A stretch of 64,000 bases of DNA from Candidatus Aenigmatarchaeota archaeon (lineage in GTDB: Archaea; Aenigmatarchaeota; Aenigmatarchaeia; CG10238-14; SCSR01), in NCBI GenBank assembly GCA_039000165.1, contig JAWBTW010000001.1, positions 13,179 to 77,178 of the forward strand, read 5' to 3'. Positions within the stretch are counted from its first letter, which is position 1, and each line of letters begins with the position of its first letter. A model generated the notes under the pieces. The model ran no database searches, had not been told where the DNA came from, and was given only the letters and a program-made list of their open reading frames with translations. A program made the translations under genes and the position numbers. Below, in pieces: positions 32,419 to 33,406 of the stretch.

Positions 32419-33406
32419 TTATTTGAAACTTGGATAAGTTCCAGGTTTTATGAAAACCTTATCAGTTTTTATTGCTATCCCTTTTTTCCTTTCAAACATT
32501 TCCTCGCTATTCAAAACAGCTTTTCCTAAGGCAACTAACTCTTCTTTCAAAGAATAAACAGCTACTATTTCATTTTTCTCTATTCCTTCTTGAATTCTTG
32601 TTAAGCCTGAGCAGAAAACTGGCGCTCCATGACAAATTGAATCGACAGCAGAATCTTTAACAAAAACTCTTTTTAAGTGCAAAACAGCAAACTCAACAGG
32701 AATCAAAATTTCTTTTAAAAATTTTTCATTTCCTTCTTTCCAAAATTCATAAGCATCCCTAATCTCCACTAAGGAATGAGCCTGCTCTTCAGTAAAATTT
32801 CCTGCTTTTGTCCTTCTTAGCTCAGTTAAATGAGCTCCTATTCCTAAGCTTAAGCCTAAATCGCTAACAAGCTTTCTTATATAAACTCCAGCTTGGCATC
32901 CAACTTTAAACAAAACATCCTTTCCTTCAATTTCCAAAATATCAAAAAAATAAACTTTTTTTTCTCTTGGTTTTCTTGCAACTGCACTTCTTACAGGCGG
33001 GACTTGAACTATTTTCCCAACAAACTTTTTTACTCCTTCTCTTAAAATTTCTTCATCAACTTGCTTGTGTAAGTGCATCACTCCTACGTATTCTTTATCT
33101 AAACCTAAAAGCACACTCATAGCTTTTGTTGCGTTATCTAAGGCTACAGGTAAAACTCCGGTCACGCCAGGATTTCCTCAAAGTTCTAAGGTCCCAGCAT
33201 GACCAGCCTTTTTTGCTTGAAATATTTCCTTTACCCACTGAGTTACTTGATGGCTTGTTGGTCCTGCATGCTTATCAACTATTATCACTGAATTTTTTAT
33301 TTGCTCTTCTATGCTTCTCTCGCTAGGTCTTTTACCATAACTTTCGTCAGTTTCTTCCTCTGCTTTAATCAGCCAGATTTTTTCACCCCCTTGACTTTAA
33401 GGCCAT
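32419..33406 (-). CDS. cbf5: tRNA/rRNA pseudouridine synthase Cbf5 (dyskerin homologue with PUA domain). Interrupted by a 12-nt insertion with in-frame TGA at 33173-33184 (putative mini-intron) and by a C5 homopolymer frameshift at 33386-33390 near the N-terminus.
   Basis: Colinear with archaeal Cbf5 from the N-terminus (MALKSRGEKIWLIK...VIIVDKHAGPTSH) through ...KAGHAGTL[ins][15 protein letters not shown] to the C-terminal PUA domain. Deleting 33173-33184 restores GTLDPGVTG. Confidence 0.8.
33173..33184 (-). other. Putative 12-nt BHB-type mini-intron in the cbf5 mRNA (ACUUUGAGGAAA), containing an in-frame UGA
   Basis: Deleting it converts [12 protein letters not shown] into the universally conserved catalytic GTLDPGVTG. 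The insertion is not at a homopolymer. Confidence 0.4.

Follow-up and report, generated by a model that had tools for sequence, protein, structure and literature searches.

The closest described counterparts of the element analyzed here are the cbf5 introns of Crenarchaeota (Watanabe 2002; Yoshinari 2006; Yokobori 2009; PMC2738675). Splicing of cbf5 pre-mRNA has been shown in Aeropyrum and Sulfolobus, where it depends on the tRNA-splicing endonuclease EndA, which recognises a fold resembling the bulge-helix-bulge (BHB) (PMC2738675). The crenarchaeal intron is 16–44 bp long, lies between letters 1 and 2 of the catalytic Asp codon (Yokobori 2009, PMC2738675), and arose in the Desulfurococcales/Sulfolobales ancestor, with later losses in some lineages (PMC2738675). 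Published archaeal tRNA introns span 11–175 nt and include HBh' and hBH motifs (Marck and Grosjean 2003, as reviewed in PMC4090602), the relaxed HBh' form being described for non-canonical archaeal tRNA introns (PMC4090602). Here we consider a 12-nt element, AACUUUGAGGAA (33174..33185, minus strand), that interrupts the catalytic Asp codon of cbf5 in a 64,000-nt stretch of contig JAWBTW010000001.1 from a Candidatus Aenigmatarchaeota archaeon (hereinafter, the window; positions are those of the window). Computation makes it highly probable that this element is a BHB-type, that is archaeal and protein-spliced, intron of the cbf5 pre-mRNA, based on the predicted fold, conservation of the insert at one bond, covariation, purifying selection on the exons, and the position shared with the spliced crenarchaeal intron.

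The locus agrees with the crenarchaeal intron in the gene and in the very phosphodiester bond within the catalytic Asp codon, in a relaxed BHB with cuts predicted between bulge nucleotides 2 and 3, in being too short to code, and in a patchy distribution with secondary losses and some lengths that are multiples of three. It differs in the hosts, which here are Aenigmatarchaeota (DPANN), sporadic Nanoarchaeota/Woesearchaeota-like contigs and one unplaced TACK-like lineage; in the lengths of 11–31 nt, mostly 11–15 nt, below the published range; and in the lack of any inner helix in the short forms. Moreover, splicing of the crenarchaeal intron has been seen experimentally and is linked to an (alpha-beta)2 EndA, while that of the present inserts is predicted and DPANN endonucleases have been reported to be alpha4 with the L3 loop, (alpha-beta)2 or epsilon2 (PMC5829648). 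The non-canonical tRNA introns with HBh' or hBH motifs are similar in size range and in having one good bulge between two helices and a weakly structured second site, with the same enzymes implied. The substrate here, unlike theirs, would be an mRNA in which coding sequence makes up, or pairs with, both helices beside the 3' site, and therefore the cbf5 structure constrains the choice of codons and even of amino acids (GHxGT with DPxVT). Coding transcripts are also processed by a tRNA-type endonuclease or ligase pathway in the case of HVO_1309 mRNA (Haloferax volcanii) and HAC1/XBP1 mRNA (eukaryotes), but these are other genes, with the Ire1 endonuclease acting on HAC1/XBP1 and no tie to the catalytic codon of an RNA-modification enzyme. 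Finally, 12-bp insertion elements in open reading frames (ORFs) of an archaeal virus have been discussed as putative introns (Peng et al., as cited in PMC2738675); they share the 12-bp size and the location inside protein-coding genes, but in that account neither splicing nor a BHB is shown for them and they may be translated, the likeness being one of description only.

A full-text literature search of incomplete coverage yielded no prior description of a cbf5 intron in DPANN or Aenigmatarchaeota. What appears to be new are the hosts, Aenigmatarchaeota, in which the intron is widespread, and Nanoarchaeota/Woesearchaeota-like lineages, in which it is sporadic, and the lengths below those of published cbf5 introns; the kind of intron itself is known. 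An earlier reading of the window made without database searches (hereinafter, the sequence-only reading) had proposed a mini-intron and mentioned BHB introns in crenarchaeal cbf5. The latter do occur, and at exactly the present position (PMC2738675), which makes the proposal stronger and the case less novel.

The interrupted Asp codon and its carriers

According to ORF translation, the window cbf5 gene lies on the minus strand at about 33378..32419. Minus-strand translation of 33390..32419 is colinear with Cbf5 through the PUA domain apart from one insert, as the sequence-only reading had it, and the mRNA of the insert region reads GGG ACC UUA GAA CUU UGA GGA AAU CCU GGC GUG. The GTLDP motif with the catalytic Asp is universal in Cbf5. 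Translation places within this motif, at 33173-33184 as had been noted, 12 nt with an in-frame UGA (33178..33180), which ends unspliced translation after ...GTLEL. When the 12 nt are removed, the mRNA reads UUA GAU CCU, so that GTLDPGVTG and the catalytic Asp are back, again as claimed, and the predicted spliced Cbf5 is 315 amino acids (aa) long. The insert site is not homopolymeric, a point on which the sequence-only reading was also correct.

Two equivalent choices of the 12 nt, ACUUUGAGGAAA (33184..33173) and AACUUUGAGGAA (33185..33174), lead to the same product. The sequence-only reading had taken the former; its length and product stand, while the BHB rule, by which cuts fall between bulge nucleotides 2 and 3, puts both cuts one base 5' of its choice. 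The introns of two related genes, L089 and L090, start with U, and therefore the Asp codon can only be obtained there from the cut G|...|AU. Because of this and the BHB rule we set the window cut at G|AACUUUGAGGAA|AU, the Asp codon being split after its first letter. Exon 1 (33186..33378, minus strand, 193 nt) begins with what looks like an AUC start, encodes (M)WLIKAEEETD...KAGHAGTL, ends with the first letter (G, 33186) of the Asp codon, and is colinear with intact relatives over the DKCLD/TruB N-terminal region. Exon 2 (32419..33173, minus strand, 755 nt) contributes the AU, PGVTGVLP..., the PUA domain and the TAA stop codon (32421..32419). The predicted spliced junction joins exon 1 ...GGGACCUUAG to exon 2 AUCCUGGCGUG.

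In the NCBI annotation the window gene is represented by a 248-aa C-terminal piece only: protein P0001, 100% identical to the exon 2 product, is named Cbf5 and starts from an internal GTG. The error is systematic, as among the best 120 database homologues of the C-terminal ORF (66–100% identity) 33 are truncated at (M/V)TGVLP or entered from another frame, and the rest are intact. Because annotation truncates the gene at the intron site, an essential RNA-modification enzyme looks broken or Asp-less in many metagenome-assembled genomes (MAGs).

The scan of one genome per GTDB species retrieved eight cbf5 loci. The closest five (L001–L005), from 'Candidatus Aenigmatarchaeota' MAGs of different projects with 96–73% protein identity, have an insert at exactly the same place, and the next three (64–47% identity) are intact. 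The inserts are of 12 nt in L001–L004 (GTLE[L/I/N]-stop-GNP) and of 15 nt in L005 (GTLENN-stop-GNP). Fifteen further carriers have been found among metagenome or Logan/ENA contigs. The total of 21 carriers (the window, L001–L005, L021, L024, L025, L058, L063, L072, L078, L089–L095, and L097) comes from the species scan, a metagenome scan (80 loci), and 10 look-ups of truncated database proteins. All inserts are at one bond, with lengths of 11 (L024, L094), 12, 13 (L092), 14 (L021, L025, L089, L091, L097), 15, 18 (L058), 24 (L078), 27 (L063), and 31 nt (L090). The relatives, comparison with which had been suggested as a check, therefore show an insert of variable sequence, with lengths not all multiples of three.

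In 21 of 21 carriers exon 1 ends with G and exon 2 resumes with AU or AC, so that excision yields GAU or GAC, and all predicted spliced products are colinear with intact Cbf5 (GTLDPxVTG). In all 12 carriers with an insert length divisible by three the intron holds an in-frame stop, and where the intron shifts the frame, translation ends within 8 codons; hence, unspliced mRNA never gives a full-length, Asp-less protein. The stops in the multiple-of-three introns may reflect selection against read-through to a catalytically dead Cbf5, or AT-rich composition. The ratio of nonsynonymous to synonymous substitution rates (dN/dS) between the window and L001–L005 is 0.04–0.31 over both exons, with 0.04–0.12 for exon 1 (compared to L001–L004) and 0.08–0.31 for exon 2. 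Both cbf5 exons are under purifying selection, and the gene is alive.

Predicted fold and its conservation

The 61 nt of the minus strand at 33150-33210 fold with –30.1 kcal/mol, compared to –14.1 ± 2.6 for shuffled sequences (z = –6.09; 0 of 200 shuffles as good). The minimum free energy (MFE) fold is a relaxed BHB (HBh'), of the kind that the sequence-only reading had proposed to look for, with a 15-bp exon-exon helix, an AAA bulge, a CCUU/GAGG helix, and a small closing loop. In the outer helix, the 5' strand CUGGUCAUGCUGGGA (33192..33206, 15 bp), formed by the codons of AGHAGT, pairs with the 3' strand UCCUGGCGUGACCGG (33158..33172), formed by the codons of (D)PGVTG. In the central 4-bp helix, the exon strand CCUU (33188..33191), covering the end of the Thr codon and the start of the Leu codon, pairs with the intron strand GAGG (33176..33179), variants of which are seen in relatives. 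The 3' splice-site bulge AA|A (3 nt, 33173..33175) is found between the outer and central helices in both the MFE and centroid folds. The 5' splice-site triplet AG|A (33185..33187), corresponding to the first BHB bulge position, belongs to the loop of 8 nt by which the central helix is closed. With both triplets cut between nucleotides 2 and 3, exactly AACUUUGAGGAA is excised and ...UUAG becomes linked to AUCC... Of these elements the 4-bp helix and the 3' bulge are canonical, and it is the location of the 5' site in a loop that makes the HBh' form; an inner helix is impossible in the window because only 5 nt separate the 5' triplet from GAGG. A home-made scan of the window for the HBh' motif was unspecific (137 hits vs. 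74–110 in shuffles), and apart from the cbf5 site none of its hits, unchecked individually, is at an identified interrupted ORF.

Pairs were counted in 20 scored carriers and in 74 cbf5 genes lacking the intron. All four pairs of the central helix are present in 19 of the 20 scored carriers, 98.8% of its cells being paired, and compensatory changes are observed in two of its four pairs, the strands being CCUU/GAGG, CUCU/AGGG, CUUU/GAAG, CCUU/AAGG, CUCU/AGAG, CCCU/GGGG, and CUCU/GGAG. For the outer helix, the mean is 13.05 of 15 standard pairs in the scored carriers vs. 8.14 of 15 in intron-less genes (Mann–Whitney p = 5e-11, uncorrected for phylogeny). In alignment A2, where the sequences are related and the variable loop was trimmed by hand, 89.5% of cells are paired on the named structure, compared to 37–53% with slid partners. 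Double-sided changes in A2 amount to 25 cells vs. 8.3 ± 2.5 in shuffles, 0 of 500 of which reach the observed value, and occur in five pairs, three of them in the outer helix. Of the 20 aligned carriers, 19 have AA|A as the 3' bulge; L078 has AU|A. In four carriers the longer introns supply an inner helix and thus a full BHB (GAAC-UAA-GUUC in L058, GCCCCC-UUAAG-GGGGGC in L078, 7 bp in L063, and 6 bp in L090).

Moreover, the codon of the variable GHxGT residue in carriers pairs with the codon of the variable DPxVT residue (A2 columns 10–12 with 35–37; window 33201–33199 with 33166–33164, minus strand), in the combinations Ala GCU/Gly GGC, Ser AGU/Ala GCU, Cys UGC/Ala GCA, and Ser UCU/Arg AGA. 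As these codons pair in the RNA helix, the two amino-acid positions are coupled; the RNA structure constrains the protein, with variable residues of GHxGT and DPxVT covarying through their codons.

Proposed splicing and alternative explanations

We propose that the transcript would fold by pairing the AGHAGT codons with the (D)PGVTG codons and the next four exon bases, CCUU, with the intron GAGG, so as to expose the 3' splice site in the 3-nt bulge AA|A and to leave the 5' site AG|A two bases past the 4-bp helix. EndA would cut both sites between nucleotides 2 and 3, and an RtcB-type ligase would join ...UUAG to AUCC..., yielding GAU of the catalytic Asp and the 315-aa Cbf5; unspliced mRNA would end at the UGA inside the intron. 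That the EndA and RtcB of the window organism perform this reaction, and that the spliced mRNA exists, is what we infer. A splicing pathway must exist in the organism, since the window holds an intron-containing tRNA-Ser. The sequence-only reading had argued for a relaxed endonuclease from a tRNA-Thr intron at a non-canonical position; this argument was not borne out, as neither a tRNA-Thr nor any non-canonical tRNA intron has been found in the window.

In its sequence features the window element matches the cbf5-intron family throughout. The site is between nucleotides 1 and 2 of the Asp codon, the frame is restored, and the relaxed HBh' structure with compensatory changes is that of an archaeal BHB intron. 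The mini-intron proposal is supported in silico by the fold, the relatives, the covariation and the independent assemblies, and the feature is real and very probably an EndA/RtcB-spliced mini-intron.

Several points weigh against splicing. In the forms of 11–15 nt, a hairpin loop takes the place of a true 3-nt bulge at the 5' site, and the window MFE fold pairs A-U and G-U across this site, extending the CCUU/GAGG helix. Relaxed motifs of this kind are reported to be left uncut by strict alpha4 or alpha'2 endonucleases (PMC5829648). Because of the phylogenetic relationship among the carriers, the p-values overstate their independence and give an upper bound on significance. A Pfam scan of about 50 window ORFs found neither EndA nor RtcB.

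Cleavage might also take place without religation, the BHB-like element then serving for EndA-initiated mRNA decay or down-regulation and not for productive splicing. Yeast TSEN does cleave mRNAs without splicing them (PMC10485636), and Watanabe and co-workers proposed the cbf5 intron as a negative regulator; however, active Cbf5 would be impossible, and yet purifying selection acts on both exons and on the Asp codon split between them, which renders this explanation improbable. Partial regulation on top of splicing is compatible with productive excision of the intron. Even less probable is a split gene with translational coupling, in which a 68-aa N-terminal peptide would assemble with a 248-aa C-terminal protein started from GUG (Val of VTG), the insert providing a UGA stop and a Shine–Dalgarno (SD)-like GAGG. 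The window layout UGA-GG-AAAUCCUGGC-GUG indeed corresponds to a stop, GAGG, a 9-nt spacer and GUG, and gene callers and NCBI annotate exactly the 248-aa ORF. But the catalytic Asp would be in neither piece, and restart at GUG from an SD is rejected on three observations: the "SD" varies (AGGG, GAAG, AAGG, AGAG, GGGG) in step with the paired Thr/Leu codons of the exon; the Pro-x codons between the insert and GUG are kept as codons, with third-position variation (CCU, CCC, CCG); and the Val codon is GUA, GUU or GUC, none of which is a start, in six carriers (L025, L058, L063, L072, L078, L091).

Translation across the site, as a four-residue insertion with a recoded UGA or by ribosomal bypassing of 12 nt, would fit the lengths of 12 and 15 nt, both multiples of three, and the Glu at the place of Asp. 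It is contradicted by the length series of the relatives (11, 13, 14, 31 nt), which excludes a translated insert since not all lengths are multiples of three, and by UGA being an ordinary stop in the window, where it terminates 16 of 62 long ORFs. As for bypassing, matching take-off and landing codons are absent, and an Asp codon assembled from G and AU 12 nt apart is beyond a hopping ribosome. The window element does not have the properties of a translated insert with recoded UGA, and we find this explanation scarcely credible. The same holds for a pseudogene or a sequencing or assembly artefact, for which one may point to at least one homopolymer frameshift in the window, in a UMP-kinase-like gene (TTTTGGGG near 3235). 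The cbf5 insert is not at a homopolymer and is carried by 20 other independent assemblies from different projects, by which an assembly error, listed as a check in the sequence-only reading, is excluded; the dN/dS values in both exons and the conserved, covarying structure contradict decay of the gene.

Lineages, origin and surrounding features

As judged from the sequences, the insert is widespread in Aenigmatarchaeota and sporadic in Nanoarchaeota/Woesearchaeota-like lineages. In a rough neighbour-joining tree the Aenigmatarchaeota carriers mostly form one subclade, with intron-less members nested in it (L009 beside L021; L010 and L013 beside L091). As in Crenarchaeota, this nesting points to losses. 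The closest named relatives of L058 are Nanoarchaeota and Woesearchaeota, nearly all intact, and L063 and L072 are assigned to the same group only by their position near L058 in the rough tree. L078 is from an unplaced lineage, with a small cluster of truncated close relatives; its nearest named relatives (about 62–65% identity) are mainly Thermofilaceae/Thermoprotei.

The 5' intron motif AGAACUAA is common to L058 (Ga0209541_10027840) and L072 (Ga0209541_10013430), which are non-sister Woesearchaeota/Nanoarchaeota-like carriers, and may indicate that the intron itself was transferred or is of common descent. The carrier protein P0011 (L097) and the intact P0021 (L098) are 95% identical over exon 2. 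At the DNA level L097 and L098 are 94% identical in exon 2 and about 70% in exon 1, the switch being exactly at the intron site (L097:986-1330, L098:1201-1530), and the genes upstream of cbf5 differ between them. The 94% DNA identity of L098 exon 2 holds in comparison to L097/L021. L098 (ERZ27247228) may be a mosaic, its 5' part having come from an intron-less allele through recombination that would have removed the intron, or a chimeric contig.

It is possible, although we advance this tentatively, that the cbf5 Asp-codon intron is more than a crenarchaeal curiosity, being either ancient (preceding the DPANN/TACK split, with many losses) or the result of repeated site-specific gain at one bond. 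This is hinted at by the carriers being found in at least three distant lineages, nested among intron-less relatives, as well as by AGAACUAA in the non-sisters L058 and L072 and by the identity switch of L098 at the intron site. With repeated gain, the intrinsic hairpin of the GHxGT...DPxVTG codons would be a recurrent target for EndA/RtcB reverse splicing followed by copying into DNA. The Gly-His codons (GGUCAC) are the reverse complement of the Val-Thr codons (GUGACC), and GGGA of Gly-Thr matches UCC(N) of Asp-Pro, so that an inverted repeat is latent in GHxGT..DPxVTG; even in genes lacking the intron, 8.1 of 15 outer-helix positions are paired vs. about 5.6 expected for random bases. The repeat may predispose the site to become a BHB outer helix once nucleotides complementary to the Thr/Leu codons are inserted. 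The position, identical to the base with that of the crenarchaeal intron, raises anew the issue of an ancient origin as against repeated gain of mRNA introns in archaea. Moreover, the forms of 11–12 nt are shorter than published cbf5 introns and equal to the published tRNA-intron minimum, and would provide a minimal substrate for DPANN splicing endonucleases, that is one bulge and a 4-bp helix closed by a loop.

The apparent start codon of the window cbf5 is AUC (33378..33376, minus strand), directly before WLIK, and no canonical in-frame start follows the preceding stop upstream of the gene. The codon before WLIK is ATC in the window and L001–L004, and ATG, GTG or TTG in L095, L089, L093, L005, and L025. 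The SD-like GGGGGUGA (33383..33390, minus strand) is 4 nt upstream of the AUC position, and GGAGGTGA or GGGGGTGA is kept at a matching start distance in relatives. A conserved GGGGGUGA or GGAGGUGA is located 4–7 nt upstream of the start codon.

The tRNA genes found in the window are tRNA-Leu (3681-3767), tRNA-Gly (44656-44730), and tRNA-Ser(UGA) (30277-30421, minus strand), with no others. The tRNA-Ser(UGA) has a 59-nt intron at the canonical 37/38 position and is detected only with introns allowed (ARAGORN -i; Rfam E = 1.3e-5). This intron contains C/D-box-like motifs (AUGAUAA ... CUGA ... AUGAUGA ... UUGAG), reminiscent of C/D small RNAs encoded by tRNA introns. A canonical BHB is absent from its MFE fold; a hand-drawn version is possible (CUUG/UGAG between AG|U and AA|A) but depends on two G-U pairs, and its splice triplets resemble those of the cbf5 intron.

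In the amino-acid-kinase (UMP-kinase-like) gene at 2874-3664 (plus strand), a frameshift at TTTTGGGG gives two ORFs that overlap, with the junction near 3230-3240. The frameshift appears to be either genuine or a sequencing error at the homopolymer; an intron at about 3235 was rejected. Directly upstream of cbf5 there are three ORFs (316, 278, and 304 aa; 33369-36092, minus strand). The Pfam scan, which covered the 316- and 304-aa ORFs and left the 278-aa one outside, gave no match for either. As read from the translations, the 316- and 278-aa ORFs have signal-peptide-like N-termini, are Asn/Thr-rich, and end in a membrane-anchor-like C-terminus. In relatives, the genes that cbf5 follows more closely are instead those of EMC3/TMCO1 and ribosomal protein L34e.

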